A DNA stretch of 64,000 bases from a virus, in the IMG/VR virus record IMGVR_UViG_3300020579_000012, positions 4,946 through 68,945 of that record. One strand, written 5' to 3'. Below the pieces are notes generated by a model. The model did no database searches, was not told where the DNA came from, and worked only from the letters and a program-made list of their open reading frames with translations. The translations under genes and the position numbers were made by a program. Positions 29,197 to 56,538 of the stretch are shown in pieces. Within the stretch, counting starts at the first letter, position 1. The number at the start of each line of letters is the position of its first letter.

Positions 29197-29451
29197 ATGG
29201 GTCGCCCACTTAAAGCAACACTGCCGATCAGTTTGAAGTGTCCTCTCAGCGGTGCGCTGATCGGTTCGAAAGCCTTCGACGAGCACTTTGCGAACGCCTA
29301 TTCGGCGAAAAGCGGTCAGTCCGTCTACGTCCTCTGCTATCCACACGGCTTCCAGGGATTTATCAATAACCCTACTATCGTGGAGCTCGTCAATGCCGAA
29401 GCGGAAAAAGCTCGAGTCCGATCAGCCTCAGCCACTCCTCGACCCCACTGA
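29197..29451 (+). CDS. small hypothetical protein (84 aa), possibly near-leaderless
   Basis: ORF track; MGRPLKATLPISLK..; overlaps the start of the next gene, so one of the two starts must be wrong. Confidence 0.35.
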   Translation: MGRPLKATLPISLKCPLSGALIGSKAFDEHFANAYSAKSGQSVYVLCYPHGFQGFINNPTIVELVNAEAEKARVRSASATPRPH

Positions 29452-31450
29452 GGACGCCTCCGTCGAGACGCAGACATTGCCGGAGCCAGACAACGGCCAT
29501 CCCGAACAGATCGAGACGGTCGAGCCCGTTGAGCCGCCAGCGAAGGTTAAGTACTCGGCGGAAGGATCGCCACGTGCTGTTGCCGCCGCGGCCCGGAAGA
29601 TTGCGAACGTCCAAGTAGCTCCGCTACCAATTCCATCCGATGATGTCGAACCGCCGGATGAGACCGATAACCTGCTTGCCGACGGTCACAATATGGTGAT
29701 CGTTCAGCGTCAATTTCCGAAGTCCGTCGACATGGCGGACGGCTCGAAGCGTCGTTGCGCCGTCAAGCTTCCGGACCGCTATCAGTGCCCGACGACGCGC
29801 GAGGAGATCGAGAATGATGTCTTCGATCGGCATGGTGGGAAGAAGTACAAGTGTACGATCCACCCGGCAACGACAAACGGTGAGTCGACGATTCTTGGCT
29901 TCTTTACGATCGAACATCCGGATCCGGAGGTCGAGCCGTACTTCGACGATGCACCTACCGCCGGGCAACAGGACCCTCGGGATACACGGACGATGGTTCA
30001 TACAAGCGGTGGCGATCCGACCATGCACGAGACCGATGGACTCGCTAAGCTTCGTGCCGATGCTGAGCGACGTCTAGACCGCGCTCGTGTCCGAAAGGAG
30101 ATGAAGGAGCTCGAGGCTGAGGCGAAGCGGCTCGAGGCTGAGATCGACGGGGACGGGAAACCGTCCGCTGCTTTACAGCCTACCGTAGAGTCCGACGAAG
30201 TGAAGAAGCTTCGTGCGGAACTCGCCGAGAAGGATCGCCTGCTTGCTAAAAAAGAAGTCAATGATCGTTTCGATAAGATTGAGAACGTCTTAGGAACAAT
30301 CATGACGACGCTCGCGGCTCCAAAGCCCGTCGAGAAGTCCGGAGACAGCGAGTTAATGAAGTTCATCACGAAGAAGATGGAAACAGACTCGACGCAGATC
30401 ACGGCGCTTATGACTGCGCTCACGGCGAAGGCTCCGGCGCCGGTCCACTCCTCCGGAGACGACCTCGACAAGTTTCTGAGTCGGGCCGAGAAGTTGAAGG
30501 CGATTACCAGCAGCACTGATAGCAAAGGAGGTCGACTTTCGGAGATCGAGAATCGTTTGATAGACGTTGCCTGGGAGCGACTGCAGGGCGGCGATGGGGG
30601 CGACGAGACCGAGGACGTCGCAAAACTTGCCGTCAAGGAGTTCGCGCCGATCTTGAAGACCTTCGTCGAGCAGAAGATGAAGCAGGAGAGCGGTGCGAGC
30701 GGCGGAGCGCCGATCCCTCAGGAACGTCTCCAGCAGATCTACGCCGAGGCAGCTCAAGCCGCCGCAAAGAAAGTCACGGACGACCTTGCAGTCCAGGGTA
30801 TTCAGCTTGCCCAGGGTGTCGACGGCCGATTGATTGCTATGACGGCGGTGAAGTCAGGACCGACAAAGTCGGTTGTTCCGCCACGACAGCACGCAGGTAC
30901 AAAGGTCGTCGCCGAGCAGCGGACATCGTCAGGAGTCGTCAAGCAAGTTTCGATCAAACCGACAGACCTGACGAGCAAGACACAGCCGGAACCGCAGCCA
31001 TCGGCGGAGCCGTCTAAGGAAGGAGGAGACGTGAAACAGGGAGAATTCCCGTTGCTCGGCGAGAACGGGGCGACTCTTAAGATTCCATTCCCGATCAGCC
31101 CCGGCGAGATGAAATATGACAGGAAGCGTGCCGTCGACTTCGTCCTAGCTGGAATCCGATCGGAGATCCGGCAGCAGTTCCCGCAGAAGGCCGAGAACAA
31201 TCAGCAGGTAGAGAGTTATGTTGCTTCAGACGCGATGGCCTACCTCGACGATGAGCTTCTCGATAGTCTTGAGGCGATCGACAACGGACCGCAGCTCGAG
31301 GCGCTTCTAATGCAGTCTGGCGGAGAAGCTTCGCAGATCAACGAGATCAAGAAGGCTGGTGAGGACGAGGTCGTTGCGAGCTTCTTGAGGCGTCTCATCA
31401 AGACGATTCAGACCGAGTGGATTAAAGAAAAGGCGAAGAACACGAAATAA
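29393..31450 (+). CDS. large coiled-coil virion/assembly protein (685 aa)
   Basis: Trimmed to ATG 29393 (GGAG 7 nt upstream); has a central E/K/A-rich coiled coil. Confidence 0.6.
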   Translation: MPKRKKLESDQPQPLLDPTEDASVETQTLPEPDNGHPEQIETVEPVEPPAKVKYSAEGSPRAVAAAARKIANVQVAPLPIPSDDVEPPDETDNLLADGHNMVIVQRQFPKSVDMADGSKRRCAVKLPDRYQCPTTREEIENDVFDRHGGKKYKCTIHPATTNGESTILGFFTIEHPDPEVEPYFDDAPTAGQQDPRDTRTMVHTSGGDPTMHETDGLAKLRADAERRLDRARVRKEMKELEAEAKRLEAEIDGDGKPSAALQPTVESDEVKKLRAELAEKDRLLAKKEVNDRFDKIENVLGTIMTTLAAPKPVEKSGDSELMKFITKKMETDSTQITALMTALTAKAPAPVHSSGDDLDKFLSRAEKLKAITSSTDSKGGRLSEIENRLIDVAWERLQGGDGGDETEDVAKLAVKEFAPILKTFVEQKMKQESGASGGAPIPQERLQQIYAEAAQAAAKKVTDDLAVQGIQLAQGVDGRLIAMTAVKSGPTKSVVPPRQHAGTKVVAEQRTSSGVVKQVSIKPTDLTSKTQPEPQPSAEPSKEGGDVKQGEFPLLGENGATLKIPFPISPGEMKYDRKRAVDFVLAGIRSEIRQQFPQKAENNQQVESYVASDAMAYLDDELLDSLEAIDNGPQLEALLMQSGGEASQINEIKKAGEDEVVASFLRRLIKTIQTEWIKEKAKNTK

Positions 31451-31470
31451 CAATAAGGAGAGAGAATTCG

Positions 31471-31785
31471 ATGGCGCATCTCGAGAATATTCCAAGTCAG
31501 ACTGTAATTCTTGACCAGATCGAGGACCTCTTTCGGCAGTCACTTGCCTTCAGTGGTCGGATCATCGGCGAGTTCTCGAAGTCTCATGGTTTTAGTGAAT
31601 CTGAAACCAAGGACCTCATACTCGCAGCCGGTCCGCTTATCGCAACGGACTATTTGAAGCAGGTAACGGGTGTCGCACAGATCATCGAACGGGCAAACCA
31701 GAGTCAGATCGATGATATGGTGGACTCCATGGAGAAGATCCTCGTCGATATCCGCAAGAGGAACAAGCTGACAGACACGGCCTGA
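31471..31785 (+). CDS. hypothetical protein (104 aa)
   Basis: ORF track. Confidence 0.55.
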   Translation: MAHLENIPSQTVILDQIEDLFRQSLAFSGRIIGEFSKSHGFSESETKDLILAAGPLIATDYLKQVTGVAQIIERANQSQIDDMVDSMEKILVDIRKRNKLTDTA

Positions 31786-31790
31786 ACTGA

Positions 31791-31802
31791 CCGTGTACAC
31801 GG
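31791..31802. promoter_or_regulatory. GTGTACAC-core palindrome at a gene junction (perfect 12-mer, + strand operon)
   Basis: TGAACTGACCGTGTACACGGAGAATTTTCGAGATG. Confidence 0.5.
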
Positions 31803-32780: not shown

Positions 32781-34433
32781 ATGAGCAACACTGTCGAGAA
32801 TCTCGATCGTGGCGTGTCAGGCACGTCGGCGACGCTCGACAAGATGCACCAGCTCGTCGCTCAGGGAAAACTCGACCCGACGTTTCAAAAGATTGCGACT
32901 TGGATCCGCGCATCCGTCTCACAGGATCGTCGTGGCAAGACCAAGGATACGGCCGACGCGATCTTCGATTGGGTGAAGACGAGCGGGATCTTTCAGTCAG
33001 ATCCATTTCAGATCGAGAAGATTGAAAGTCCGATCGAAGCGATGCGTCCGATCATCCAGGCGCGTCAGGCAGGCACATATACGGGACCCGGTCTCTTTGT
33101 CGGTGACTGCGACACGTTTGCGATCATAACTGCGACACTTGGCGGCATTCTAGGTTTCCAGTACGCCTTCGAGACCGCGAAGGTCGACGCCTCTCGTCCG
33201 GACGAGTTTTCGCACGTCTGGACGGCACTACTTGTCGACAACGACTGGTACCCGCTCGACTCCTCGACTCCTGGCGCCTACCCAGGCTGGCGCCCTCCTG
33301 TCGCGCCGAATCTGCTGGCGCGTTGGCCGGAGCAACCGATCGAGAACTTCGTCAAGGGGTCCGTCATGAGCGCATTCAACCGCGGACTCGGCGATAACCA
33401 GACCTCACCGACTGCTGGAATTGACACAGCGTATCCGCAGGACTACATCGCCTACGGTGTTCCGAAAGATTTTGGCGCTGGCCCTGGCGTGATTCCGCAA
33501 GCGAACTTCGATGATCTTCAACTTCTCCCGCCGCATGAGACGCAGATTCCGGACGCCGACATGCAGCCGGACATGCATCTGCTTAAGGCTGCGCCGCTAC
33601 TAAACCCATCCGAACGGATCGAGTCGATCTCTGGATTCCCGACAAACGACCACGGAAACCCGTACTTCCAGAGCAAACCCGGCAACCCACGCTACAAGGT
33701 AGAAAACCAGTTTTACCCGCCCGGCTCGCGCTGGAACGGGCAGATGGGTCACGACATCGTCCGGTACGTTAAGACCGGGTCGTACGTGAAGGTCAAGAGT
33801 GCCGAGTCCCCAGAGAGACAAGTGAGGGCGAATATGGCTCAACCGATGATGGTTCGCAGGCGTATCATCATGTCGAACGGACGACAGATTCCGTTCGGTG
33901 CGATGGAGGGCCTCGGTCAGACTGATCCTGGTCTTGTCACGTCACTTGATCCGTCCGTCTCAGACCCGACAGCCACACCACCGGACACGTCGGGGATGGT
34001 TACGTCGCTTGGGCCGACTCCGGCTCCAGCTCCGACTCCAACTCCGGCTCCAGCACCATCTTCGGCCTCCATCATGTCGACCGCCGTCACGTCGAATCAG
34101 CTTGCACCGACGCCGACTCCAGCCGCCTCATCGAGCCCGCAAGCCGCTGCCGCAGCATCCGCTGGAGGATCTGTCTGGTCGTCGATCTCATCTGCCTTCC
34201 AGGCTGCTGGAACGATCGCCCCGGCCGCGATGCAGTCATCGTTGATGCAGTCCGTTATCGCAGCGACGAACAAGCTTGCCGGGAAAACCGTTCTCGCACC
34301 CGGCGTCGTTCCATGGTACCTGAACCCGATCACGCTCTTCACGCTCGCCCTGATTGGTGGCGGCGGCTACTACATTCTGCACAAGAACCGTCCTGGGGGC
34401 TCCGGAACTCGCCGTCGCCGTCGGTACGCCTAA
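32781..34433 (+). CDS. transglutaminase-like cysteine peptidase with S/T/P/A-rich linker and C-terminal TM anchor
   Basis: GDCDTFAIITATL..SHVWTALLV..WYPLDSS (Cys-His-Asp layout); ends ..VVPWYLNPITLFTLALIGGGGYYILHKNRPGGSGTRRRRRYA. Confidence 0.7.
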   Translation: MSNTVENLDRGVSGTSATLDKMHQLVAQGKLDPTFQKIATWIRASVSQDRRGKTKDTADAIFDWVKTSGIFQSDPFQIEKIESPIEAMRPIIQARQAGTYTGPGLFVGDCDTFAIITATLGGILGFQYAFETAKVDASRPDEFSHVWTALLVDNDWYPLDSSTPGAYPGWRPPVAPNLLARWPEQPIENFVKGSVMSAFNRGLGDNQTSPTAGIDTAYPQDYIAYGVPKDFGAGPGVIPQANFDDLQLLPPHETQIPDADMQPDMHLLKAAPLLNPSERIESISGFPTNDHGNPYFQSKPGNPRYKVENQFYPPGSRWNGQMGHDIVRYVKTGSYVKVKSAESPERQVRANMAQPMMVRRRIIMSNGRQIPFGAMEGLGQTDPGLVTSLDPSVSDPTATPPDTSGMVTSLGPTPAPAPTPTPAPAPSSASIMSTAVTSNQLAPTPTPAASSSPQAAAAASAGGSVWSSISSAFQAAGTIAPAAMQSSLMQSVIAATNKLAGKTVLAPGVVPWYLNPITLFTLALIGGGGYYILHKNRPGGSGTRRRRRYA

Positions 34434-34437: not shown

Positions 34438-34707
34438 ATGTCTCAGATCATCTACGTCCGGAGACCCGGCCTCGGCGACGTGACTTCATCGATCACGGAC
34501 GCTGCGACCGCGTCTATGGCTCCCGTGATCGAGCAGATGCTCGTGAATGACGTTCTACCGATGGTTGTTGTCGGTATGGTTGCGGGAGCCGCCGTCGCCG
34601 CGTTCATCGGCACATGGTTTTCGCACAAGGCGATGCGTTCTGCAGGAGTTATCAGGAAGAATCCTGTCGCGCGGACGTACGTCTCGCTCCGACGGAGGCG
34701 TGCGTGA
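34438..34707 (+). CDS. membrane protein (89 aa) with basic tail
   Basis: IYVRRPGLGD near the N-terminus; TM segment MVVVGMVAGAAVAAFIGTWF; ..IRKNPVARTYVSLRRRRA. Confidence 0.55.
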   Translation: MSQIIYVRRPGLGDVTSSITDAATASMAPVIEQMLVNDVLPMVVVGMVAGAAVAAFIGTWFSHKAMRSAGVIRKNPVARTYVSLRRRRA

Positions 34708-34730
34708 GCTGGCTGAATTTAAAATCAAGG

Positions 34731-37697
34731 ATGATGTCAGAGCTTCGGCGCTGGGCTCGAGGTATTACAGAGACCAGCGGCCCGGAGTTCAACTTCGACG
34801 CCGAGTCGGCAATCTGGTGGTTCGCAAACGACTACCACAGCGGCGGCGGCAGCGAGCTCTATCAGATCCTCTCGATGTCGAAACTCCGTCCCGGTCCGTC
34901 GCACCGTTCTGTCTCAGACGAGGGTGAGATCCCGGCGATGATGTACGAGGCTCTCGAGCAGAAGTTCATCCCGAAGGGTAAAGCTAAACGGAATCCTTCC
35001 CGTGTCCGAGCGAACAGTAACTACGCTCATCAGGACGCGAAGCTTTTCCAGATCGTCTACATCGGTCGATCGAAGTACCGAGCGATCGGACGGCTGCCAG
35101 ACGGAATCATGCTCTGGAAGGGCTCAGGTCCGACGATTTATATGTTGATCGAGAATGCCCAGGGCGAGTGGGGAACCGGTCGCTTCGACAACAAACTCTT
35201 CGCGCAGCCGGTCGCCCAGCAGTTCTCGCGTCTGCCGACAGAGACCAAGCGGTACATCATCACCCAGCAGAAACGCGGTTCGGCGATCACTCCGGGCGGC
35301 ATCTGGAAGAACTCCGGAGGCTCCGTGCGGAAGAATATCTACACCTTTAACAATCCCGGCAACGCCCAGAAGATTCTCGCCGAGAACTTCATGCGCGGCG
35401 CGAACTCCGGCGTTGCATCGTCGATGTACATCCACGGGAACAGGATCTACTCGTACGGCCCGCACTTCCCGATCGCGCAGCGGAACGACGACGGGACGAT
35501 CCTGATCCGGCACCCGAGCAAGAAGGCGCCGTCAAAGACGACTGCGGGGCACATCTCCGCCGTCGTGAATGCTGCGCGTCAGGTCTACTCGCCCGACTCG
35601 ATTCTGTATGACACGGCCGGGGAGCTTTCGGCTGAGGCGAAAGGTCCGGCGGCGTACTCGAACCCAGGTGTCAGAAAAAACATCTACACGTTCAACAATC
35701 CGCGTGACTCCTCTGTCGAGTCCGCCGCTCGCGCGGTCGGTCTGTTCGTTGGAGTTTGGTCGCCTGGAGACGGACAGACACGATATCGCTTCTTCTCGAA
35801 GACAACGCGCGGTAGTCGGTATGCCGATTACCACGAGGGCGATGGCATCTACACGGCGCTCGGACGGAAGGACGCGCTGGCGTTCATTGCGGCATACGGG
35901 AAGGGCCGTGGAGCCAGGAGAAATCCAAAGACGTCGGTATATGTTATCGAAGGCTTCACACACCGTGGTCGACGCGGCAAAAGTCAACGGCGTGCGGAAT
36001 TCAGGACGCCGTCTCTCACAGAGGCACGTGCGAGAGCGGAGCAGATATTCCAGGAGACCGGCGTTGTTGTTGCGATCACTCAGAGGAACCCACTGACACG
36101 CTCGGAGGCCGGATACCTGCTTCGGCATGCGAAGGCAGACGTCACCGAGGCAGCCGTCGCTCGCCGACATGGCCTGACCTACGAGCAGAAGTACGCCGTC
36201 GGACACGCCCGCGGGATCGGCTTCGCGGTCCAGGAGACAGGACCGAAGGCAGCGCGGAAGGCCTGGGTCGATCTCCATACGAGGTTGGATCGGGTCACTC
36301 GGAATCCGTGCTTGAATAATCCAACCTGCGCGAATCCGAGGCATCCGCACGGTCCTGTCGAGAACACAGCCTACGGACAGCGTCGTTCGTATGCCGACTT
36401 CGTCGCGCGGAAGCGTGCGGAGTACGGTGACAAGTTCGACGACTCGGATCTCGCGCCTCAGTTCATCCAGTACTACGAATCCGGCGCGCGGATCGAGGTC
36501 GAGTTCGTCTCGTCGACAACCGGTAAGCCGTACGAGACGAAGCGCGGTCGCGTCGGCGTGACGACCGGCTGGAAGCCTGTCTTTCTGCTCATGCTGACAA
36601 CGAGAAGTATGGGTTCTCCGTACACGCTCGGGAAAAATGATCGTGTAGTCCGGTTCGTCCGGTCGAACCCTCTTACCGTCTCCGAAGACAGAGAGATCGA
36701 GCACGTCGCAAGACGTGAGAGGATCATAGGCGAGCAGATTCAGAGTCCCGGCAGCCGCGGGTATGCACTCGGTCACTCGGACGGAATGAACCACGTCCGG
36801 AGGAAGTACGGCCCTATTCGTCGCAACCCTCTCCTCCAGACGATCGGCCTGATGGCAAACCCGCCGGTCTCTGACCAGTGGAACAGGATGACGTCGCGCC
36901 AGCGACTCCATGCGCTCGAGTTCGTCGGCTACCCGACGGATTTCGCCAGTTCGATGGCCCGGCGCCTCTGGATGACGCTTCCTGGGACTGCTCGCGAGCG
37001 CCTCGAGTCCGCTCGGCTCGACACGAGCTCGCGCGGGACGACCCGTCGGCGCGTCGCTGTGCCGGTCGGGGCGAATCCTCTGACACGGACAGAATCAGGT
37101 CAGATCCTTCGGGATGCGAGATTTGACGCCCGTTACGGATCGACATTTCAGGGTGGACACACTCGCTCATCCCGTGCCGGGATGGCCTGGGCGAAGGCGA
37201 AAGTCGTCCGTCAGTACGGACCGAAGAGCGCTCGTCGCGCTGCGAGTCGGATTGCCGATAAAGCTCGGACTGTGGCGCGGACGGCGATGTCGAACCCCGG
37301 TGTCCGCTTCCCGAAGCCCGGCACGAAGTTGACCGTTGCACAAGCCTTCGAGCTCGCGCGCCGGATCGGCGATCGGGCCCTGATCGAGCAGTGCCGGAAG
37401 GCGCTGAAGCTCCAGAAGGCCGCCAACAAGGACGTCAAGTGTGTCATCTGGAAGACCTTTCCGATGGGCTCGAAAGGACAAATCGACTCGGTGATCGCCC
37501 TGACGCACTACGGCGACTCGCCGGAGACGATGTACCGGCCGCCGCCAGGATCGAAGAAGGGCAACCACATGTACCGTCACAACTGGGGCGAGAAGGGCGG
37601 CAAGCAGACCGTCCCGCTGCTCGCCTCGGCGGACGGGAAGATGCTGCTGATGCCGCTTGAAGGTAAGAAGGTCGCTTCCGATTGGCTGAGGCATTGA
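34731..37697 (+). CDS. large multi-repeat virion protein (988 aa)
   Basis: Trimmed to ATG 34731 (AAGGA SD). VRKNIYTFNNP occurs twice with different codons; three NPLT..GH..YGP modules; more than ten basic-N-P motifs. Confidence 0.7.
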   Translation: MMSELRRWARGITETSGPEFNFDAESAIWWFANDYHSGGGSELYQILSMSKLRPGPSHRSVSDEGEIPAMMYEALEQKFIPKGKAKRNPSRVRANSNYAHQDAKLFQIVYIGRSKYRAIGRLPDGIMLWKGSGPTIYMLIENAQGEWGTGRFDNKLFAQPVAQQFSRLPTETKRYIITQQKRGSAITPGGIWKNSGGSVRKNIYTFNNPGNAQKILAENFMRGANSGVASSMYIHGNRIYSYGPHFPIAQRNDDGTILIRHPSKKAPSKTTAGHISAVVNAARQVYSPDSILYDTAGELSAEAKGPAAYSNPGVRKNIYTFNNPRDSSVESAARAVGLFVGVWSPGDGQTRYRFFSKTTRGSRYADYHEGDGIYTALGRKDALAFIAAYGKGRGARRNPKTSVYVIEGFTHRGRRGKSQRRAEFRTPSLTEARARAEQIFQETGVVVAITQRNPLTRSEAGYLLRHAKADVTEAAVARRHGLTYEQKYAVGHARGIGFAVQETGPKAARKAWVDLHTRLDRVTRNPCLNNPTCANPRHPHGPVENTAYGQRRSYADFVARKRAEYGDKFDDSDLAPQFIQYYESGARIEVEFVSSTTGKPYETKRGRVGVTTGWKPVFLLMLTTRSMGSPYTLGKNDRVVRFVRSNPLTVSEDREIEHVARRERIIGEQIQSPGSRGYALGHSDGMNHVRRKYGPIRRNPLLQTIGLMANPPVSDQWNRMTSRQRLHALEFVGYPTDFASSMARRLWMTLPGTARERLESARLDTSSRGTTRRRVAVPVGANPLTRTESGQILRDARFDARYGSTFQGGHTRSSRAGMAWAKAKVVRQYGPKSARRAASRIADKARTVARTAMSNPGVRFPKPGTKLTVAQAFELARRIGDRALIEQCRKALKLQKAANKDVKCVIWKTFPMGSKGQIDSVIALTHYGDSPETMYRPPPGSKKGNHMYRHNWGEKGGKQTVPLLASADGKMLLMPLEGKKVASDWLRH

Positions 37698-38991: not shown

Positions 38992-39654
38992 ATGAATATG
39001 GGACAGGCGGCGGCAGCCGCGGCGGCGGATCCCGCCAGCCAGGGAGTGACGGTCGTTCAACCGTACTACAAGATCACGCAGGGCGTTCCTGCGGCGATCG
39101 TGCGGTCGTACAAGCAGCCCTTGTACGACTCCGAGATCATCCTGGCGTCGGCGCCGCAGCGTGAGTTCACGCTGTACCAGAAGCCCGTCGGCCAGACGCT
39201 CAACGACGGTGTGACCGTGAAGACGTTCTTGTACTCGAACCAGACCCAGGCGGGCTCCCTCGGGACTCCCCTGAGTTTCGACGTATTCGGGTATAACTGC
39301 CGCATCTGGGGCAGCCCGGCGTCCAAGCTCCTGTCGATCGGCAACTACACCCTGGTCGAAGCCGCGGGCGTCGCCCAGGTCGTTTTCGGACAGGACACGA
39401 CCTTCCTGACGATCCCGATCGAGGACGTGCCGTCCGGCGTCGACACCGAAGGTCAGGCCGTGACCGATGCTCCGCACATCGGCTGGGGCGTGAGCGACAA
39501 CATCTACCGGTTCGATATCGGTGGACGTGCGCTCCACATCAACGCGACAGAGCCGTATTCCGTCAAGATCTCCTGGCCGAGCGGGCTGACCGGCACGACC
39601 GGCAACCTGCTCTTCCGCTGGTTCATGAGGGGCATCCTCTACAAGGGCGTCTAG
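38992..39654 (+). CDS. beta-rich capsid-like protein (220 aa), candidate small major capsid protein
   Basis: Ala-rich N-terminus; ..SLGTPLSFDVFGYNCRIWG..QVVFGQDTTFLTIPIEDVP..LLFRWFMRGILYKGV; flanked by strong hairpins; paralog of 3197-3844. Confidence 0.6.
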   Translation: MNMGQAAAAAAADPASQGVTVVQPYYKITQGVPAAIVRSYKQPLYDSEIILASAPQREFTLYQKPVGQTLNDGVTVKTFLYSNQTQAGSLGTPLSFDVFGYNCRIWGSPASKLLSIGNYTLVEAAGVAQVVFGQDTTFLTIPIEDVPSGVDTEGQAVTDAPHIGWGVSDNIYRFDIGGRALHINATEPYSVKISWPSGLTGTTGNLLFRWFMRGILYKGV

Positions 39655-44295: not shown

Positions 44296-44296
44296 G

Positions 44297-45557: not shown

Positions 45558-45566
45558 AGCACTTGA

Positions 45567-45593
45567 AACCGCCCGACCCCTAGCCGGGCGGTT
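45567..45593 (+). terminator. candidate intrinsic terminator
   Basis: AACCGCCCG-acccctagc-CGGGCGGTT followed by CTGATCC (weak U-tract). Confidence 0.45.
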
Positions 45594-45662
45594 CTGATCC
45601 GGCGATCGGTGATTACTGATGGAAAGCCCGGGGCGGGCGGGAATATTTAGAGGAGGGTTCAA

Positions 45663-46235: not shown

Positions 46236-46261
46236 ACCCTGAAAGAGAAAGAGAGAGTCCT

Positions 46262-46669: not shown

Positions 46670-46685
46670 CGAAACGGAGAATCCG

Positions 46686-49162: not shown

Positions 49163-49164
49163 CC

Positions 49165-49767
49165 ATGGACCCAGACGTCACCTACGCCCGGGCCCTCGCG
49201 ACCGCCTTTGCGGCGGACATAGACAATCCGTCAATCGCCGGGGTGATCCAACGTGGTGGCCTTACGCAGGACCAGTTTACGTCGATTGTTTATCGGGACA
49301 TTCAGCGGGGCCTTACCGGAGCACCTGGACCAGCTCTTTTTCCGTCTGTTCGGGCTTTTGCACGTCAGGTTGTTGGTATTACAGCGATAAAGCAGGCGAG
49401 GAGCTACGGACTCTCGCAGGCCTCTTCTGACATCGGCGGGGCCGCCGGTTTAGTCGGCGCTATTGCTGGAGCTGTTGGTGCGATTTGGAGTACGAAGATC
49501 AACACCGACTCCCAGAAGAATCTTGCAAAGATCCAGGCAAACGAGGCGCAGATCACTCAGAACTCCCAGACACTTGCTGCGCAGTCTGCATTGATCCAGA
49601 ATGCGACAGCGAACGGCGTACTCCTCTCTCCGGCGGGAGGTGTGACTCCTGTGACCGCGATAGGTCCGTCGGGGACTCTGACCGCCGTTAGTGGTCTTCC
49701 GGTTCTGGCGATCGGAACGGCGCTCGCAGCGATGGTGTTCGGTGGCTACTTCTTCGCAAAAGGATGA
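49165..49767 (+). CDS. tail-anchored membrane protein (200 aa)
   Basis: Ends ..GLPVLAIGTALAAMVFGGYFFAKG. Confidence 0.55.
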   Translation: MDPDVTYARALATAFAADIDNPSIAGVIQRGGLTQDQFTSIVYRDIQRGLTGAPGPALFPSVRAFARQVVGITAIKQARSYGLSQASSDIGGAAGLVGAIAGAVGAIWSTKINTDSQKNLAKIQANEAQITQNSQTLAAQSALIQNATANGVLLSPAGGVTPVTAIGPSGTLTAVSGLPVLAIGTALAAMVFGGYFFAKG

Positions 49768-49771
49768 TTCT

Positions 49772-50629
49772 ATGAGAAACCTGCAGCACGGCGTTAGAGT
49801 CCGCGTCGTCCAGACGCCGTTGGTTATGTACGTCAACGAGGCGACCTGGATCCCCAGCGGCATGCATGGCTACGGCGACGAGGGCTGGCGGAGCGGCATG
49901 TCCGCCTACCCGGTCGTCGATGACGACTCCGCCGCGATCGAGCCGCTCGTCTCGAAGCTCATGGTGAATGGGTTACCGGAGGCACAGGCAAGGGCAATCG
50001 TTCAGGCCGCCGTAGGGCGTGTCCGGTCGGTTGGAGGCGGTATGGGCGCCTCGTTGATGGTTGAGAAGGCTACCGCTCTCGACGCGGTCTTCCAGGGTCT
50101 CTTAGTCAGGGGTATCCCTGCCGATCGAGCCCGTATTCTCGTCAACCGGGCTGCCATGCGTCGTGCCGGTCTGTCCGGTATGGGCCAGAGCGCGACCGTC
50201 GACGCTGCAGTCCTGCAGAAGGCGAGCGATACGCAGACCCAGCACCAAGCTTTAATTGCCCAGTACGCCGCGGCGACAGACCCCACTTCGCAACTGGATA
50301 TCCGGAACCAGATTGATGCTCTGTATTCCGACTGGACGACCTACGCGGTCGGCGTCGAGAATGGTCAGCCTCCGTACCAGTGGAATCTGGCCGACCCGAC
50401 CGCGGCAATCCTTTCGTCGATCCGAAATGACATCGCGAATACGCTGTCCCTGATCGATGCCGGGAAGGCTCAGCTCGCGCTCCAAAAGAACATCGTGACC
50501 TCCTGGTCGCAGTCTTCGCCGAATATGACCATGCCGACGATATCACCAGGCGATGTCCCCTGGTACGTCTGGGCGGGTGGCGGTGTGGTTGGCCTGACAG
50601 CACTCAGCAAGTTATTCGGGAAGAAGTGA
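49772..50629 (+). CDS. tail-anchored membrane protein (285 aa)
   Basis: Trimmed to ATG 49772; ends ..GDVPWYVWAGGGVVGLTALSKLFGKK. Confidence 0.55.
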   Translation: MRNLQHGVRVRVVQTPLVMYVNEATWIPSGMHGYGDEGWRSGMSAYPVVDDDSAAIEPLVSKLMVNGLPEAQARAIVQAAVGRVRSVGGGMGASLMVEKATALDAVFQGLLVRGIPADRARILVNRAAMRRAGLSGMGQSATVDAAVLQKASDTQTQHQALIAQYAAATDPTSQLDIRNQIDALYSDWTTYAVGVENGQPPYQWNLADPTAAILSSIRNDIANTLSLIDAGKAQLALQKNIVTSWSQSSPNMTMPTISPGDVPWYVWAGGGVVGLTALSKLFGKK

Positions 50630-50706: not shown

Positions 50707-52035
50707 ATGCCTCAGAAACCGCAGCTCATCGACATGATCCGGACGGTCCCGGAAGTCGCCGTGCGACTTTGGGCGGGCGGAGTCCCGCGCCCGTCCGACG
50801 ATGGCGTCCGGATCGAGTTCGAGGGCCACATGCCGGTATTTCATGCGGACATCTACCAGCAGGCCGACAAAGTCGCTCGGATCCTGGCGATCCGCTGGGG
50901 CAGTCGCAAGCTCCGGTCGATGACGGACCTTTTGGATCTCCGGCACGCCGCTGAGGATGTTTTCATCGAAAATCTCTTCCATCGAGAGGACACACCGAAA
51001 GTCCTCTTTGTTCCGGCTGGTGAGACCGCCTCCGGCTTCTACCGTGCGATGATCCCGGCAGATCTGATGAATGAGGGCGGCCGGATCATCTCCCATTGGA
51101 CGAGTCGCCCGGATGTTGCGAAGGCACTTCGCTACGACGTCCTTTGGATCCAGCTCATCACGGCGCCGATTCTGATCGAGATCGCCCGTCAGGCGCAGGC
51201 GAGCGGCGTCCGGATCGTCTACGACATCGACGACAACCTGTCTGCGATTCCAGACGAGAATCAAGCAAAGAACGTCTACGGGACTCCGGAAAAGCAGGCG
51301 GAGATCCGGGCGATGATCGATTTGGCGGATCTCGTCACAGTCTCGACGGCACCGCTCGGGCGGGTCATTGCCGCTCGGCACCCTGGCAAACGGGTCGTCG
51401 TCCTTCCGAATATGGTGACGGCGAACGTTGCTCCGCGTCGGCATACACCGAATCCTGGCTTTGTTCGGATACTCTGGGCCGGAACGCCGACACATAAGCG
51501 GGACCTCGCGATCGTTGCACCCGCACTCCGGGAGCTGCTCCGGGAGCGGAACGGAAATGTTCGCTTTACGCTCTTCGGCGAGCGCGTCCCGGAGGCCCTG
51601 GCGGACTGCCAACAGTGGATCGACCTTAAGAAGCCGGTCGACTTTCAGGACTACCACGACGAGCTTGCCGAGCTCGCCGCGGACTTTGGGATCGTCCCGC
51701 TCGAGGCGAATGCCTTTAACGAATCGAAGTCCGGCTTGAAGGGTCTCGAGTACGCCTCCGCGGGCTACCCGATGCTCTGTTCTCCGGCCGCTGAGTACCC
51801 GGACATGGTCCGGGACGGATTCCCGTCCGCACTCGTTGCCGATGGCGACTGGCTTCCCGCGCTCCGGTACATGGTCGATCTGACGGCCAAGGAACGCGAT
51901 ATCATGGGGAAGGCTTGCATTGACTGGGCCACCCGGAACCGCTGCATGGGGACGAACCATGCAGACCAGTGGGCCGACGTTGTCCATGATCTTCTCGGGA
52001 AGCCGACGAAGGCGGAACTGAAGCTGGTGAGTTGA
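50707..52035 (+). CDS. glycosyltransferase (GT1/GT4-like) inside the late module
   Basis: ..IDLADLVTVSTAPLG..VVVLPNMV..RILWAGTPTHKRDL..NESKSGLKGLEYASAGYPMLCSP. Confidence 0.8.
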   Translation: MPQKPQLIDMIRTVPEVAVRLWAGGVPRPSDDGVRIEFEGHMPVFHADIYQQADKVARILAIRWGSRKLRSMTDLLDLRHAAEDVFIENLFHREDTPKVLFVPAGETASGFYRAMIPADLMNEGGRIISHWTSRPDVAKALRYDVLWIQLITAPILIEIARQAQASGVRIVYDIDDNLSAIPDENQAKNVYGTPEKQAEIRAMIDLADLVTVSTAPLGRVIAARHPGKRVVVLPNMVTANVAPRRHTPNPGFVRILWAGTPTHKRDLAIVAPALRELLRERNGNVRFTLFGERVPEALADCQQWIDLKKPVDFQDYHDELAELAADFGIVPLEANAFNESKSGLKGLEYASAGYPMLCSPAAEYPDMVRDGFPSALVADGDWLPALRYMVDLTAKERDIMGKACIDWATRNRCMGTNHADQWADVVHDLLGKPTKAELKLVS

Positions 52036-52301
52036 TGGCGCGACTTGATGCAGCGATCGATGTGGCGACGGAGTACGCCTACCACCTCTACAAGGTGGAC
52101 GGCGTTCCACAGGCTCAGGCCATCACGATCGGTGCGGCGGCGGTCGTCCGGGCAGCTCGTGCGAATCCGTTAAAGTTCGTCACGCCGAGAGCACAGCCAC
52201 AGCCGGAGTCCGCACTTGGTTGGTCCGGACAGGCACTCTCACTGGTTGGTTCATCTCTCTCGGTAATCGGTTTGATTAAAACACTTTTCGGTGGAGGATA
52301 G
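52032..52301 (+). CDS. tail-anchored small protein (89 aa)
   Basis: Ends ..GQALSLVGSSLSVIGLIKTLFGGG. Confidence 0.5.
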   Translation: MMARLDAAIDVATEYAYHLYKVDGVPQAQAITIGAAAVVRAARANPLKFVTPRAQPQPESALGWSGQALSLVGSSLSVIGLIKTLFGGG

Positions 52302-52305
52302 AAAG

Positions 52306-52716
52306 ATGTCGAAGGGAATCCGACGCTCCGGTCCAGGAAAATGTAACACGATCCTAGACTCGGTCATCTACCAGATGATCGGAGAGGGCATGGGCGACGA
52401 GTCTTGCGGGGATGTTTCCGAGGTTGGATTCGCTGCCGAGAAGATCTCTCTCGGTAGGGATGCTATCAAGGAGGCTGAGAGAATTGCCGCGGAAGACGAC
52501 GGTCTGACCGACGAGGAAGTCGATATGATAAAAGACTCCGTCGGGGCGATCATGGTCGAGAACGACCAAGGATTCGTCACTGTCGACTACTACGAAAATG
52601 AGAAGGAATTCGAGAAGGACTGGGAGGAAATCCAGGACGACGCTTCCCCTGAAGACGAGGAAGAAGAGGAAGAGGAATCTGAAGAGGAAGACGCCGAGAC
52701 CGAGGAGGCTGAATAG
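52306..52716 (+). CDS. highly acidic protein with poly-Glu tail (136 aa)
   Basis: GGAGGA SD; ends ..DDASPEDEEEEEEESEEEDAETEEAE. Confidence 0.55.
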   Translation: MSKGIRRSGPGKCNTILDSVIYQMIGEGMGDESCGDVSEVGFAAEKISLGRDAIKEAERIAAEDDGLTDEEVDMIKDSVGAIMVENDQGFVTVDYYENEKEFEKDWEEIQDDASPEDEEEEEEESEEEDAETEEAE

Positions 52717-52718
52717 CC

Positions 52719-53168
52719 ATGTCGCTGACAACCGAACAGTACAGGACCTTGGCAGACGTCCAGCGCAACCTCGTCCGACGTGGGGTGAGTCCGGTAGCCG
52801 CAGGGCAGGCGATCCTCCGTGCCGTCGACCGGGTGGCGCCGGGTGGCATGGGCTCGTGTGGTCCGGACTGCTGCTGCTGCCGTGGCAGTGGCGTCGGACA
52901 GACTACTCTTGCGCCCCTCTCGACGACGACCGGCGGGCTGGCGCCAACGACGGCCAGTCCCGTAGCCGGAGCCCCTCCGATCATCTCGACGATCGACGCG
53001 GCAGGGAATAATCCGTCCGTTGCGGCAATGCGGGACCTCGTCGGGAAGTGGTCTTGGGTGATTCCGGTTGGCGGTCTATTGATGTCCGCGAAGTCGAAGT
53101 TCACGGACTGGCGGGCCTCGAAGACGGATCCGGCGTATGCTGCTTCGAAGAGTCTGAGGAGCCGGTGA
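52719..53168 (+). CDS. hypothetical protein (149 aa)
   Basis: ..GSCGPDCCCCRGSG.. followed by a T/A/P-rich linker. Confidence 0.5.
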   Translation: MSLTTEQYRTLADVQRNLVRRGVSPVAAGQAILRAVDRVAPGGMGSCGPDCCCCRGSGVGQTTLAPLSTTTGGLAPTTASPVAGAPPIISTIDAAGNNPSVAAMRDLVGKWSWVIPVGGLLMSAKSKFTDWRASKTDPAYAASKSLRSR

Positions 53169-53395
53169 AGCTGCTGAAAGCCTTCAGGTTTCTTCATAAG
53201 AAGAAACCGTGTTTTCGATGCGGCGGGAACGCGACAGTCGGGTATATGTCGATCGACTACTGCGTGATCTGCCGTGAAGTCGTGATGAGAATGATGCCGA
53301 TCGTCGGGTTTGGCGGGATGTTCGGGTTTCCGGGGGCGACCGGATACTTGGAGTTCCCGAATTTGGAGAAGATCCAGGAGAAGAAGGAGAACTGA
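53165..53395 (+). CDS. small zinc-ribbon/hydrophobic protein (76 aa; start uncertain)
   Basis: GTG overlapping the upstream stop; CFRCGG..CVICRE. Confidence 0.4.
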   Translation: MKLLKAFRFLHKKKPCFRCGGNATVGYMSIDYCVICREVVMRMMPIVGFGGMFGFPGATGYLEFPNLEKIQEKKEN

Positions 53396-53396
53396 C

Positions 53397-53711
53397 ATGG
53401 GAGACGCGCCGTACATCATCATCAAGAACCGTCCCGGGTCCGGGGCCTTTAAGCGGTCGATCAGAACCCCTCGTTTCTGGCAGCACAACGAGACCGGGAA
53501 CGTGGTCGAGATCGTCCGAGTTCAGGAGGTCGACGGGAGCTGGCTCAGGTACATCTTCATCGATCCGACTGTTCCCGGCGTGCAGCTTTCCATGCCGTTC
53601 AAGACCCGGGAGAATCCGTACCAGCCACCCGGCCGATCGACGCCGCTGATGGAGCCTGGTTTTGAGGACCAGTACCACGTTTACAAGGACCAGCAGAGCA
53701 CGCGGGTCTAG
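53397..53711 (+). CDS. hypothetical protein (104 aa)
   Basis: AAGGAG 8 nt upstream of ATG 53397. Confidence 0.5.
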   Translation: MGDAPYIIIKNRPGSGAFKRSIRTPRFWQHNETGNVVEIVRVQEVDGSWLRYIFIDPTVPGVQLSMPFKTRENPYQPPGRSTPLMEPGFEDQYHVYKDQQSTRV

Positions 53712-53713
53712 TT

Positions 53714-54223
53714 ATGGATGAACTCAATAAACCACAAAAGGTCCGGCCGATTGTATTTCCGGACATCCTGTCTCCCGAGGAGCTCGACCGGGAGATCCGT
53801 CGCGTCTGGAAGATCTGTATCGCCGCGTCTGTCTCGGTTCCGCTCCTGGCGTGCGTCGTCGTGGCACTCCTGTTCTTCGGCGTCACGGACCTAAAGACCG
53901 TCGGACTGATCGCCTACCCGATAACGGCGATCGTTCTGATGACGTTCGGGCTCGCCTTCGTGATCCCGGCGACACTGACCAGCATCCGCCGCGTTTCGGC
54001 TACGGTCCGGATGGCCTATACAGGGCTACAGACGAACCAGCAGACGACGGAGTCGATAAAGGCCTTTCTCGAGGAGGCTCGGCCGATCGTCGATGTCATG
54101 AAGAATCAGATCCAGGACGGTTTCCTTGAGAAAATCGAGGGACACTTGAAGACGATCGCCGAGCGCGTCAAGCGCGACACGACGCCGTTGCCGACAGGTC
54201 GCCGACCCTCGATCGAGGCCTAA
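53714..54223 (+). CDS. membrane protein (169 aa)
   Basis: Two TM segments (ICIAASVSVPLLACVVVALLFFGV; LIAYPITAIVLMTFGLAFVIPA). Confidence 0.55.
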   Translation: MDELNKPQKVRPIVFPDILSPEELDREIRRVWKICIAASVSVPLLACVVVALLFFGVTDLKTVGLIAYPITAIVLMTFGLAFVIPATLTSIRRVSATVRMAYTGLQTNQQTTESIKAFLEEARPIVDVMKNQIQDGFLEKIEGHLKTIAERVKRDTTPLPTGRRPSIEA

Positions 54224-54232
54224 CGGAAAAAT

Positions 54233-54667
54233 ATGGCAGGCGGCGGAGGCAGCGGGACGATTTACCTGAGAGGCTCTACCTATCAATGCTGCGGCAGCAT
54301 ATCCCAAAATAAAGACGTGGTGACGATCCGGAAGGGCCAGCCAGTTGCCGTTCACTCGAGCGGAGTCGGAGTCGTCCTGGCCGGTGCCGCTCTCAACGGG
54401 ATGTACGCTGTTGGACTAGCGAAGGAAGACATTGCGGTAGGCGCGAGCGGACCGATCGCAGACTTCGGCGACTTCCAGATGTCCGACTGGACACCCGTCG
54501 TCGGTTCGCCGTCCCTGGCGGCGAAGGCAACGTACTTCCTAAGTGACGTGGTAGGCCAGCTCTCGACAGTTTCTCCGTCATCCCCTGGAGACGTCAGTCA
54601 GATTGTTCTGCGTGAGATAGCTCCGGACACTGCGTCGCTACGAATAGAATCTCCGATTTTGATCTGA
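54233..54667 (+). CDS. small beta-rich structural protein, paralog of 54676-55152
   Basis: MAGGGGSG.. N-terminus; ends ..LRIESPILI. Confidence 0.55.
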   Translation: MAGGGGSGTIYLRGSTYQCCGSISQNKDVVTIRKGQPVAVHSSGVGVVLAGAALNGMYAVGLAKEDIAVGASGPIADFGDFQMSDWTPVVGSPSLAAKATYFLSDVVGQLSTVSPSSPGDVSQIVLREIAPDTASLRIESPILI

Positions 54668-54675
54668 GGTGATCC

Positions 54676-55152
54676 TTGGCACTCAGAAAACCGCTCGTCT
54701 TCAACGGCGGCATCCAGCAGCTCCAGAGTGGAGACACCCTGGATGCCGCACGGTCCGATTCATCCGGTCTGATCCAGACGAACGACAACGTCGGCGCAAT
54801 GATCGCCGGACAGGTCGTATACAACGACGCGAACGACGGCGTCAAGAGCGCGAAGGCTGACGCCAGCGCGACGAAGGACGTCGTCGGTCTGATGCTCGAC
54901 ACTCCGGCGGCGGCCGGAACCGGCTTCGTCGCTATGAGCGGACCGGTCACGTTGACGACCGCGCAATGGGATGCGGTCTTCGGGACGTCCGGAGGACTGA
55001 CAAAGGGAACTCGCTACTACCTGTCGGCAACATCCGCCGGTCAGGGTCAGGCTGGTGCCCCAACCACCGTGGGACAGTATGTCGTCGAACTCGGTATCGC
55101 CATTTCGACGACCGAGCTGATGCTTGCGATCAGGAGCCCGATCCTCCTTTGA
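54676..55152 (+). CDS. small beta-rich structural protein, paralog of 54233-54667
   Basis: Ends ..LMLAIRSPILL; shares the G..V..G.A.S/T..L.I.SPIL pattern. Confidence 0.55.
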   Translation: MALRKPLVFNGGIQQLQSGDTLDAARSDSSGLIQTNDNVGAMIAGQVVYNDANDGVKSAKADASATKDVVGLMLDTPAAAGTGFVAMSGPVTLTTAQWDAVFGTSGGLTKGTRYYLSATSAGQGQAGAPTTVGQYVVELGIAISTTELMLAIRSPILL

Positions 55153-55370
55153 GCGACAAGAAGCCTCTTGTCCTGGGGACCGATCCGTCGAGCGGTGCGG
55201 TTCAGATGCAGCAGATTCAGCCGTGCGATCAGGTTAACCCGGCCTCGCTCCCGTTCGATCGGGAGACGAATTTGCGTAGGCTCTTTCGTGTCCTGATTCG
55301 AGATCTGATGAGCATTGGATTCCCTGTGTCTCAGGAATTGATCGACGAAGCCTCTAAGCAAGGATACTGA
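55149..55370 (+). CDS. hypothetical protein (73 aa; TTG start)
   Basis: TTGA overlap with the upstream stop. Confidence 0.4.
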   Translation: MSDKKPLVLGTDPSSGAVQMQQIQPCDQVNPASLPFDRETNLRRLFRVLIRDLMSIGFPVSQELIDEASKQGY

Positions 55371-55371
55371 C

Positions 55372-56136
55372 ATGGCAAACTTCACAGCGATCGTACGAGG
55401 GATAGCGCAGCGCGTCCTCGCGATCACATCGCCGACCCCGGACGGAACGGAGACACCGAACGGAGTCCGTACTGGGAGATTCAACGAACTATTCTCGCTG
55501 AATCTCTGGGCAAAACAGCACGGCCTCGCGGACGAGGAGTCGTCCTTTGTGATGTCCGGAACGCTCGGCACCGGAGTCGCAACGATCGCTGCGCTCACGG
55601 GGCTTGTCGATACATCTCCTTTTATCATTGCGAAGAATATTGCTGATCCGTCAACCGGGATCCGGTCCTATCTCGACCTCTTGAAGCTCATCTGCACGGT
55701 GGCCGGGACAGCAGGGACGGCGCTTCGATACGGGGTCAAAGTCGGACCGAGTCGACAAGACCCGACCGGAATGGACGCTGCATTCAACCCGACTCTGGCG
55801 GCACCGACCGGCGTTCCACAAAACGTCCAGGCGTCCAGCCAGAGGCAGTCGATCCTGCGCGTCTATGCCGGGGCGCTCGTTGCACCGGCCGCTCAGGGCG
55901 GTACGCGCCAGCTTGGGGGAGGTCTCCTGAAGAGCGCAATCCCCGTCGCCAACGACCAATACATCATCAACTTCGGCGGAATCGATCCGGCCGCGCCTGC
56001 AACCCAGGTCGATAGGAACGACGCGCATCCTTCGGTGGTAATCCCTCCCGGCTACTCCGCGTTCATACACATTTGGCTCCCCTCGCAGTCTGCGGCCTCG
56101 AGCTACGAGATTCAACTCCATCATCACGAAAGATAG
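55372..56136 (+). CDS. structural protein (254 aa), fold unknown
   Basis: ORF track; last large late ORF. Confidence 0.6.
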   Translation: MANFTAIVRGIAQRVLAITSPTPDGTETPNGVRTGRFNELFSLNLWAKQHGLADEESSFVMSGTLGTGVATIAALTGLVDTSPFIIAKNIADPSTGIRSYLDLLKLICTVAGTAGTALRYGVKVGPSRQDPTGMDAAFNPTLAAPTGVPQNVQASSQRQSILRVYAGALVAPAAQGGTRQLGGGLLKSAIPVANDQYIINFGGIDPAAPATQVDRNDAHPSVVIPPGYSAFIHIWLPSQSAASSYEIQLHHHER

Positions 56137-56139
56137 ATC

Positions 56140-56538
56140 GTGACCAGAGTCGAAGTCCTCTTCGATCTCATCCGGACACAGGCGTCGCTCCGGTTCCCCT
56201 GGATCGCCCAGGTCAAGGTGAAGTTCTGTCCGATGGCCGACCGGGATCACGGGATGAAATGGCGCCAGTTCGCCCATACAAATCATCGCGTGTACACGGT
56301 CTGTTTCGCGAAGGCGGCCGAGATCGAACTCTTCGACGAGGAGGTCCTCGGGATGTCGGCGCACGAGCTGGGGCATATCGTCGGGAAGCGTCTTCGATAC
56401 CCGGAGCACTCGCGGCCGACGACGACGAAGAGGACCCCCAAGGCCGTCCAGGACGAGGCCGACAGGATCGCCCAGGAGGTCCTTGGGTTCGACGGCCTTC
56501 ACTACAACCACCGGACGCTCCAGGAGCTTAGAGGATAG
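56140..56538 (+). CDS. small HEXXH metallopeptidase-like protein
   Basis: ..GMSAHELGHIVGK.. Confidence 0.6.
   Translation: MTRVEVLFDLIRTQASLRFPWIAQVKVKFCPMADRDHGMKWRQFAHTNHRVYTVCFAKAAEIELFDEEVLGMSAHELGHIVGKRLRYPEHSRPTTTKRTPKAVQDEADRIAQEVLGFDGLHYNHRTLQELRG

Follow-up and report, generated by a model that had tools for sequence, protein, structure and literature searches.

Prokaryotic double-jelly-roll viruses mined from metagenomes have been reported with genomes of 7–18 kb (PMC5894146), those of ANME-1 have genomes of ~10–11 kb (PMC9894754), and the Preplasmiviricota have been described as remaining below 50 kb (PMC11071308) and as "tightly constrained in size" (PMC13598248). The Salisaeta phage SSIP-1, which is unclassified, is icosahedral and tail-less, with an internal membrane, a T=49 capsid and a circular double-stranded DNA genome of ~44 kb (43.8 kb) (PMC6260650), and two types of major capsid protein have been described for it (PMC6356626, PMC4958249). 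Here we analyse 64,000 nucleotides of viral DNA (the window; positions 4,946 to 68,945 of the IMG/VR record IMGVR_UViG_3300020579_000012), in which an earlier note, made from the letters alone, had singled out the late module at 29197–56538 of the plus strand as that of a large, membrane-containing and possibly tail-less virus. We conclude, with a probability of about 0.7, that the window belongs to an uncultured prokaryotic virus without a tail and probably with an internal membrane, which falls within the vertical jelly-roll lineage and is distantly related to SSIP-1, its closest cultured relative. To speak of an altogether new virion architecture would go too far; what we find is a known architecture (the PRD1/STIV/SSIP-1 type plan) in a lineage with large genomes. 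The statement that characterised bacterial members are far smaller needs one correction, since SSIP-1, with its 44 kb, is such a member.

The capsid candidates are encoded by two neighbouring late genes. Structure prediction with AlphaFold2 followed by Foldseek searches, a check that the earlier note had suggested, covered two late proteins, of 313 residues (39787..40728, plus strand) and of 220 residues (38992..39654, plus strand), and gave for both of them jelly-roll folds with matches to viral capsid proteins. The 313-residue protein, a candidate major capsid protein of the double jelly-roll type, was modelled from a 65-sequence alignment with a predicted local distance difference test (pLDDT) of 87.7 and a predicted template-modelling (pTM) score of 0.85. 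The model is all-beta and consists of two eight-stranded barrels (residues 27–159 and 183–310), and in each half a short helix precedes the last three strands. It has, in other words, the two barrels that characterise the major capsid protein of vertical jelly-roll viruses. Among PDB structures it matches STIV (3j31_P), the PRD1-like PR772 (6q5u_A, template-modelling score [TM-score] 0.37) and phiCjT23 (7zzz_A, TM-score 0.35/0.42), and also the cellular double-jelly-roll proteins DUF2961 and PHM. Among predicted viral structures the best match is I1ZBI0, a protein of 256 residues (TM-score 0.57/0.68). The family includes 101 close homologue clusters with 42–88% identity, all of ~305–320 residues and found on contigs of up to 75 kb, and none of these clusters carries a Pfam domain. 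Profiles built on the close and on the broad alignments have no matches in the PDB sequences or in PHROGs. Judging from the model, the kinship of this protein to known capsid proteins is visible at the fold level only.

The product of 38992..39654 is a putative single-jelly-roll capsid protein, acting either as a penton or as a second major capsid protein. Its model (pLDDT 78.5, pTM 0.71) is a beta-sandwich with a single jelly roll, and its Foldseek matches are mainly viral jelly-roll capsid proteins, with SPV1 at the top (2.2e-3), followed by P23-77 VP16, VP17 and KHP30. It has 61 homologue clusters, and no other protein of the module is as well conserved, with 65–96% identity in relatives versus 52–89% for the 313-residue protein, with the higher value in every relative. 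A 215-residue paralogue is encoded outside the late module (3197..3844, minus strand; BLASTP 1e-4; hhalign 92% over 146 aligned columns), and the end of its gene overlaps the gene for GroES (2844–3218). On the other side of the 313-residue gene lies another beta-rich protein of 220 residues (40793..41455, plus strand), which is conserved (42–89% identity in relatives) and is a candidate vertex or minor capsid protein; it has no profile match and no detectable homology to the neighbouring jelly-roll proteins. The adjacent beta-rich trio pointed out in the earlier note is real, except that the gene calls favour a start of the third open reading frame (ORF) at 40793 (220 residues) over one at 40718 (245 residues). 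The LGTPxxF motif that was said to be common to two of the three is found in 38992; 40793 has VGTPLNF, and the exact second copy lies in the minus-strand gene 3197–3844. The shared GTPxxF also led us to consider ORFs 38992 and 40793 as paralogues, which was rejected for lack of detectable homology, the real paralogue being 3197–3844. The next gene (41477..41884, plus strand) encodes a conserved protein of 135 residues with a Gly7 linker and 48–89% identity in relatives. It has no profile match and is a candidate vertex protein.

The high conservation of the smaller protein invites a different assignment of the same genes, in which the capsid would follow the plan with two major capsid proteins of P23-77, the sphaerolipoviruses and SSIP-1. 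The 220-residue product of 38992 would then be the small and the 313-residue product the large major capsid protein, the barrels of the latter would not be arranged as in PRD1 P3, and the former would be more than a penton. Throughout the superfamily the two genes lie side by side, the smaller protein is the more conserved one in all relatives and resembles P23-77 VP16 and VP17 as well as SPV1, and SSIP-1 itself has been described with two major capsid protein types (PMC6356626, PMC4958249), all of which would fit such a plan. Yet the Foldseek matches of the 313-residue model are STIV, PR772, phiCjT23 and the cellular double-jelly-roll proteins, and P23-77 VP17 is not among them, and we regard this arrangement as rather unlikely.

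The vertical jelly-roll reading draws further evidence from sequence similarity with the virion proteins of SSIP-1. A membrane-anchored transglutaminase-like protein of 550 residues (32781..34433, plus strand) begins with a transglutaminase-like Cys-His-Asp domain, continues with a linker rich in Pro, Thr and Ala, and ends in a Gly-rich transmembrane helix followed by RRRRR. Its N-terminal 164 residues match the SSIP-1 structural protein gp34 (BLASTP 3e-7, hhalign 96%), which has the same transglutaminase-like triad and a Gly-rich C-terminal membrane anchor. The residues C110, H145 and D160 are invariant in the family alignment, gp34 included, and PF01841 (Transglut_core) matches six of the eight members (best 7e-8), with a score of 0.0015 for the window copy. 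Another structural protein of SSIP-1, gp47 (256 residues), is the top SSIP-1 match to the broad profile of the 313-residue capsid family (hhalign 53%, E 1.4e-4), which is suggestive. The gene order around gp47 in SSIP-1, with a ~210-residue gene before it and a ~130-residue gene after it, loosely parallels the 220/313/220/135-residue order of the window, where there is one extra 220-residue gene. Hence, the kinship with vertical jelly-roll viruses that had been proposed is upheld by the two-barrel and single-jelly-roll models, by the sequence link to SSIP-1 and by an ATPase of the HerA/FtsK type (see following).

The window is 64 kb of a larger genome. Exact-protein look-ups found the same element on seven contigs of 68.4–69.1 kb from independent samples. 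One of the seven is circularly permuted and starts at about window position 32,961, and a 15-bp tandem array at window 63612–64000 resumes at the far end of L001, which reaches 4.9 kb past the window start. The whole genome is therefore circular or circularly permuted, with ~69 kb. The assemblies mostly break inside the array, and it is here that the circle closes with respect to the window.

The 35–36 plus-strand ORFs of the late module were joined into nine query strings and scanned against Pfam and PHROGs, and the claim that tailed-phage hallmarks are missing from them was borne out. There is no terminase, portal, HK97 capsid, tape-measure, sheath, tube or baseplate family in the module according to these two databases, and the sole functional match is a GT4-family glycosyltransferase, which had also been predicted (50707..52035, plus strand; PF13692, 1e-7; phrog_7162, 2e-34). 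With no capsid, portal or tail hallmark recognised by Pfam or PHROGs, the virion module as a whole would be labelled hypothetical by annotation pipelines. Extending the same scan to the rest of the genome, i.e., the minus-strand blocks and the 4.9 kb outside the window, revealed no head, tail, terminase or portal families. Of the HK97 capsid, portal and large terminase subunit that define Caudoviricetes, the two databases thus recognise none across the full circle, save that phrog_2666, annotated as "terminase large subunit", is matched by the HerA-like ATPase (3.6e-9), the one PHROG match of the packaging category. Neither Megablast of the late module nor tblastn of the 313-residue capsid candidate produced matches among 50,697 phage records. 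Walker A motifs occur in the whole genome in the HerA-like ATPase (1–538), a D5 primase-helicase and a DinG-like helicase, plus one incidental occurrence in a 190-residue ORF (45663–46235); the ATPase is thus the sole packaging-type NTPase, as the earlier note stated for the window, and this survey leaves no ATPase-nuclease (terminase) candidate in the complete genome.

A highly divergent tailed phage could in principle give this picture, if its HK97 capsid, portal and terminase were missed by the profiles and if the jelly rolls belonged to a tail or baseplate or served as decoration. Tail proteins often contain beta-sandwich or jelly-roll domains, some matches in the viral structure library are tail or structural proteins of tailed phages (TM-score ≤0.26), a tailed phage encodes a homologue of the HerA-like ATPase, and several large late proteins are outside the fold predictions. 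However, the complete genome is without a terminase candidate, which makes this explanation very improbable. Moreover, no HK97, portal or tail family is matched, the terminase family appears only through the ATPase and phrog_2666, and the jelly-roll proteins are the most conserved of the late proteins and are accompanied by homology to SSIP-1 virion proteins.

The remaining element of the vertical jelly-roll plan is the ATPase. The first 538 positions of the window (1..538, minus strand) encode the N-terminal 179 codons of a HerA/FtsK-superfamily ATPase of 468 residues, whose full gene is at L001:10590–11996. It has a Walker A motif at residues 29–36 and ends with a coiled coil and a probable winged helix. 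Searches of PDB sequences with this protein return only HerA proteins (5.6e-6 for the single sequence, 1.9e-14 for the profile), and its distant homologues carry the HerA domains PF01935/PF05872. The alignment with P9, the packaging ATPase of PRD1, is weak but full-length and colinear (hhalign 39%, E 3e-4), and in both proteins the ATPase domain begins at the N-terminus. A pattern-based scan for the ATPase in IMG/VR recovered it in one of eight capsid-bearing uncultivated virus genomes, and is a weak gauge of the co-occurrence of ATPase and capsid.

Several observations weigh against the assignment to a tail-less jelly-roll virus. The TM-scores of the 313-residue model to solved capsid proteins are modest (0.35–0.42) and not above those to DUF2961 and PHM, and the model does not establish whether the barrels stand side by side (PRD1-like) or stacked (P23-77 VP17-like). 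The single-jelly-roll match of the 220-residue protein is weak, with a best E of 2.2e-3, and the proteins of 685, 997, 220 (ORF 40793) and 135 residues are outside the fold predictions. That I1ZBI0 is SSIP-1 gp47 is plausible, though unverified, from their equal length and the hhalign match. Our picture of lipid and virion morphology, with a membrane inside and without a tail, is drawn from indirect evidence, namely the tail-anchored late proteins and the late protein homologous to one of the SSIP-1 virion. The ATPase gene is in a minus-strand block, 29 kb from the capsid genes, and the closest annotated homologue of its product is a "HerA helicase" of phage L018 (MW202482.1), an ordinary tailed phage with its own terminase and with portal, capsid and tape-measure genes. 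This helicase (622 residues, 20547–22415) is encoded in the early region of that phage, and its N-terminal 290 residues are 31–33% identical to the ATPase (E 2e-30, hhalign probability 99.95%). Tail-less viruses are thus not the only carriers of this ATPase subfamily, and a function as packaging motor, which would follow from elimination and precedent, is unproven.

A profile of the 313-residue protein, searched against 1.84 billion representative proteins, identifies at least 456 clusters at 50% identity (E ≤1e-3), of which 221 have E ≤1e-10, and none of the 456 matches a PHROG or a PDB sequence. IMG/VR contains eight relatives, the four longest having 67–73 kb, and remote members are found on contigs of 58, 71 and 87 kb. 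One distant branch has ~134 kb and is represented by L015 (ERZ27247850, 134,025 bp) and L016 (JGI 3300027896, 133,938 bp). Because these two assemblies are in different rotations, the 134-kb relative also seems to be a circular genome of the same lineage. In this branch the synteny is the same: the genes for a transglutaminase-like protein and for a homologue of the Arg-rich membrane protein described below come with those for the single jelly roll (31% identical to the window protein) and for the double one (27% identical). The jelly-roll gene pair is kept in L015 (hhalign 100% for both proteins) and in the remote relative L019 (99.6%). These data raise the question of whether the vertical jelly-roll viruses of prokaryotes include a lineage of high rank and global distribution that has so far escaped description, with the pair of single and double jelly-roll genes as its signature, a capsid family of at least 456 clusters, long contigs of 58–134 kb and SSIP-1 as sole cultured relative; we would give this even odds. 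No description of a group of prokaryotic jelly-roll viruses of 60–134 kb was found in the full-text literature searched, which is limited to open-access papers, so that an earlier description elsewhere is possible.

A non-viral large plasmid or integrative element, whose late module would encode cell-surface, secreted and glycosylated proteins and whose tandem beta-sandwich would be a lectin or an enzyme, could account for the many tail-anchored and Pro/Thr-rich proteins, the several glycosyltransferases, the tyrosine integrase, the HerA-type ATPase and the Foldseek scores to DUF2961, PHM and glycan-binding proteins, which equal those to capsid proteins, but is very improbable because of the homology to experimentally identified SSIP-1 virion proteins (clear for gp34, suggestive for gp47) and the very strong conservation of the jelly-roll pair next to variable spike-like genes, besides the presence of the relatives in the IMG/VR viral collection, the phage-type HNH endonucleases and holin-like gene, and the genome size of 68.4–69.1 kb tightly kept across samples.

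The conserved part of the late module, 29393–41884, contains several other genes. The first encodes an acidic coiled-coil protein of 685 residues (29393..31450, plus strand; 30–66% identity in relatives), which aligns with a 658-residue protein of the 134-kb relative (hhalign 88%) and has no Pfam, PHROG or PDB match. It may be a scaffold or size-determining protein. The transglutaminase-like gene is followed by those of three consecutive core proteins of 89, 997 and 369 residues. The 89-residue protein (34438..34707, plus strand) is predicted to be a membrane protein and is conserved in relatives, with a C-terminal RKNP...RRRRA tail. The basic 997-residue protein (34704..37697, plus strand) matches phrog_8217 and phrog_7247, both of unknown function, and is a candidate internal (core) protein or polyprotein; neither it nor the 550- and 685-residue proteins has a phmmer match in PDB. 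A near-identical strain from another sample (L004:2368–4737) has a 789-residue version of it, and this difference of ~208 residues suggests that the protein is modular and tolerates the loss of segments. The 369-residue protein (37708..38817, plus strand) has, as the earlier note observed, an Arg-rich N-terminus joined to a membrane domain: 34% of its first 150 residues are Arg, with conserved xNP motifs, and a hydrophobic Gly/Ala-rich domain follows. Its homologue in the 134-kb relative is recognised by hhalign at 97%, and we take the protein as a candidate DNA-condensing membrane protein. The motif [R/K/S]NP occurs once in the 89-residue protein, eight times in the 997-residue one and six times in the 369-residue one (15 in total), and only once among the remaining 32 late ORFs. 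Relatives retain it even where the flanking residues have changed, and it possibly corresponds to processing sites (Asn-Pro) or to DNA-binding elements.

Immediately downstream of this conserved block there are six variable ORFs (41888..45010, plus strand; 299, 222, 129, 132, 237 residues and others), which are poorly conserved in or absent from relatives and are alike in their N-termini only. The Gly-rich spike- or fibre-like proteins of the earlier note are readily found here: MA[S/K/G]GGG N-termini are present in ORFs 41888, 42792, 43471 and 54233, and ORF 44297–45010 contains 26.6% Gly. Such variability beside a conserved block fits host-recognition spikes, and the products of 41888–45010 are candidates for this function, with the shared Gly-rich N-terminus as attachment segment. 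Then comes a block of membrane proteins (45067..50629, plus strand; 87, 76, 190, 135, 380, 445, 200 and 285 residues), four of which end in a Gly/Ala-rich transmembrane helix followed by K/R; the C-terminal anchors of the 380- and 445-residue proteins are common to both (hhalign 83%). In all, a hydrophobic helix rich in Gly and Ala, with basic residues after it, forms the C-terminus of at least seven late products (550, 89, 380, 445, 200, 285 and 89 residues), in agreement with the number given before.

The distal late genes (52032..56538, plus strand) are devoid of profile matches, except for a weak one to a holin. This concerns a 169-residue protein with two strong transmembrane helices (53714–54223, plus strand), possibly the holin of the module, whose match to Phage_holin_3_6 (E 0.0064) is below the Pfam cut-off. 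A pair of Gly-rich ORFs follows (54233–55152, plus strand), with near-alike C-termini of the form SPIL[I/L] (…ESPILI, …RSPILL); ORF 54966–55370 overlaps the pair in another frame and is probably no gene. After a 254-residue ORF without profile match (55372–56136, plus strand), the last late ORF (56140–56538, plus strand) encodes a 132-residue HExxH protein (HELGH) without family match. A second small HExxH protein, SprT-like, is encoded outside the window (L001:14193–14774; PF10263, 3e-7), and either of the two could be a protease for maturation or lysis.

The genes of the window are oriented in three blocks, minus at 1–28.9 kb, plus at 29.2–56.5 kb (the late module) and minus at 56.8–64 kb. 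The first two blocks diverge from back-to-back sigma-70-like promoter matches (29094..29185, both strands): the one on the minus strand, TTGACA-16-TATACT, agrees at 11 of 12 positions and the one on the plus strand at 9 of 12, against a mean of 0.1 in shuffled sequences. Shine-Dalgarno motifs precede 21 of 34 late genes (background 15%). These signals indicate that the host is prokaryotic, probably bacterial. The scan of genome contigs for prophages or hosts found one 14-kb contig only, binned to a metagenome-assembled genome (MAG) of Thermoanaerobaculia, and two further MAG labels of relatives are Vicinamibacteria and Thermoplasmata. With a single contig and mixed labels, this is but a weak hint of a host in Acidobacteriota. 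The minus-strand genes include GroES (the Cpn10 co-chaperonin, 2844..3218; PF00166, 2.9e-22; phrog_3188), a tyrosine integrase, a methyltransferase, glycosyltransferases, HNH endonucleases and the D5-type primase-helicase and DinG-like helicase. The accessory genes at 8661–10691 and 17151–21177 of this strand comprise a TOD1/MUCI70-like glycosyltransferase, an S-adenosylmethionine methyltransferase, GT2 and GT4 glycosyltransferases and a nucleoside 2-deoxyribosyltransferase-like protein (phrog_12607), and this set, which comes on top of the late GT4, suggests a modification of DNA or of surface glycans. The 15-bp array, with 25.9 copies in the window, is coding, and corresponds to the (A/G)DLRG repeats of a pentapeptide-repeat protein (window 63282–64000, minus strand, continuing at L001:15885–16037; Pfam Pentapeptide, 4e-48). 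An "AVPTC" repeat protein considered at the window end was rejected, since it lies in the wrong reading frame of this gene. The 4.9 kb outside the window contain the remainder of the ATPase, the SprT-like protein, a DUF6011 protein and small ORFs.

If the window indeed encodes a tail-less vertical jelly-roll virus, its assembly might proceed as follows. Transcription of the late genes would be driven from the divergent promoter region near 29.1 kb, and the tail-anchored proteins would insert into the host membrane. The jelly-roll proteins would build an icosahedral shell over a patch of this membrane, possibly helped by the viral GroES and by the 685-residue coiled-coil protein, and the HerA-type ATPase would pump in the genome through a vertex. 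Inside the vesicle, DNA would be neutralised and condensed by the Arg-rich head of the 369-residue membrane protein and by the basic 997-residue protein. The transglutaminase-like peptidase may process these two proteins at xNP sites or may cut the cell wall at entry, and the variable Gly-rich-headed proteins of 41.9–45 kb would be the vertex spikes that set the host range. By scaling from SSIP-1, we estimate a particle of roughly 110–120 nm. Should the high-rank lineage considered above be real, its members would be the largest tail-less prokaryotic viruses known, and the non-eukaryotic members of the structural lineage would not be confined to small genomes; they would also carry a DNA-condensing membrane protein and a chaperonin of their own. 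A widespread lineage of 58–134 kb would provide bacterial or archaeal counterparts to an expansion in size so far seen only in eukaryotic giant viruses. It would also be a test case for the scaling of jelly-roll capsids, from the way in which their size is set to the condensation of DNA by a membrane protein rich in Arg and the role of a virus-encoded GroES.

Among viruses with jelly-roll capsids, the Nucleocytoviricota share with the window a two-barrel capsid protein, a HerA/FtsK ATPase and a D5-like primase-helicase. The rest of their core set, namely PolB, VLTF3 and RNA polymerase, is not found by Pfam and PHROGs, and the expression signals are prokaryotic, against the eukaryotic hosts of that group. 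PRD1 and the other Tectiviridae, PM2, STIV and FLiP/phiCjT23 resemble the window in the two-jelly-roll capsid candidate, the adjacent single jelly roll and the many small membrane proteins, and PRD1 also in the FtsK/HerA-type ATPase, through the weak full-length match to P9. Unlike in this group, the genome is circular instead of linear, the ATPase gene does not adjoin the capsid gene, and the protein-primed PolB and terminal protein are replaced by the D5-like primase-helicase and the DinG-like helicase; nor does the capsid profile have sequence similarity to PRD1 P3 (hhalign) or to any solved capsid protein. A circular or permuted genome of ~69 kb, without PolB and without a P3 match to the capsid profile, falls outside the Tectiviridae, and it is 4–9 times larger than the 7–18 kb reported for prokaryotic double-jelly-roll viruses (PMC5894146).

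The P23-77/sphaerolipovirus group also has two adjacent and highly conserved jelly-roll genes, of which the smaller product here resembles VP16, and an internal-membrane architecture such as theirs is plausible for the window virus. In contrast with that group, the 313-residue protein matches double-jelly-roll proteins and not VP17, there is no sequence similarity, and the genomes of the window lineage are much larger than 17–31 kb. SSIP-1 remains the closest case, as both genomes are circular double-stranded DNA with a long structural module on one strand. Beyond gp34 and gp47 there is no detectably homologous protein, the ATPase included, and the 2319-residue gp43 of SSIP-1 is absent from the window genome. 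The source habitats of the window lineage are not hypersaline isolates, unlike that of SSIP-1, its genome is 1.6 times larger here and up to 3 times larger in relatives, and specific to it are the Arg-rich membrane protein, the xNP-motif proteins, GroES, the D5 primase-helicase and the glycosyltransferase set.

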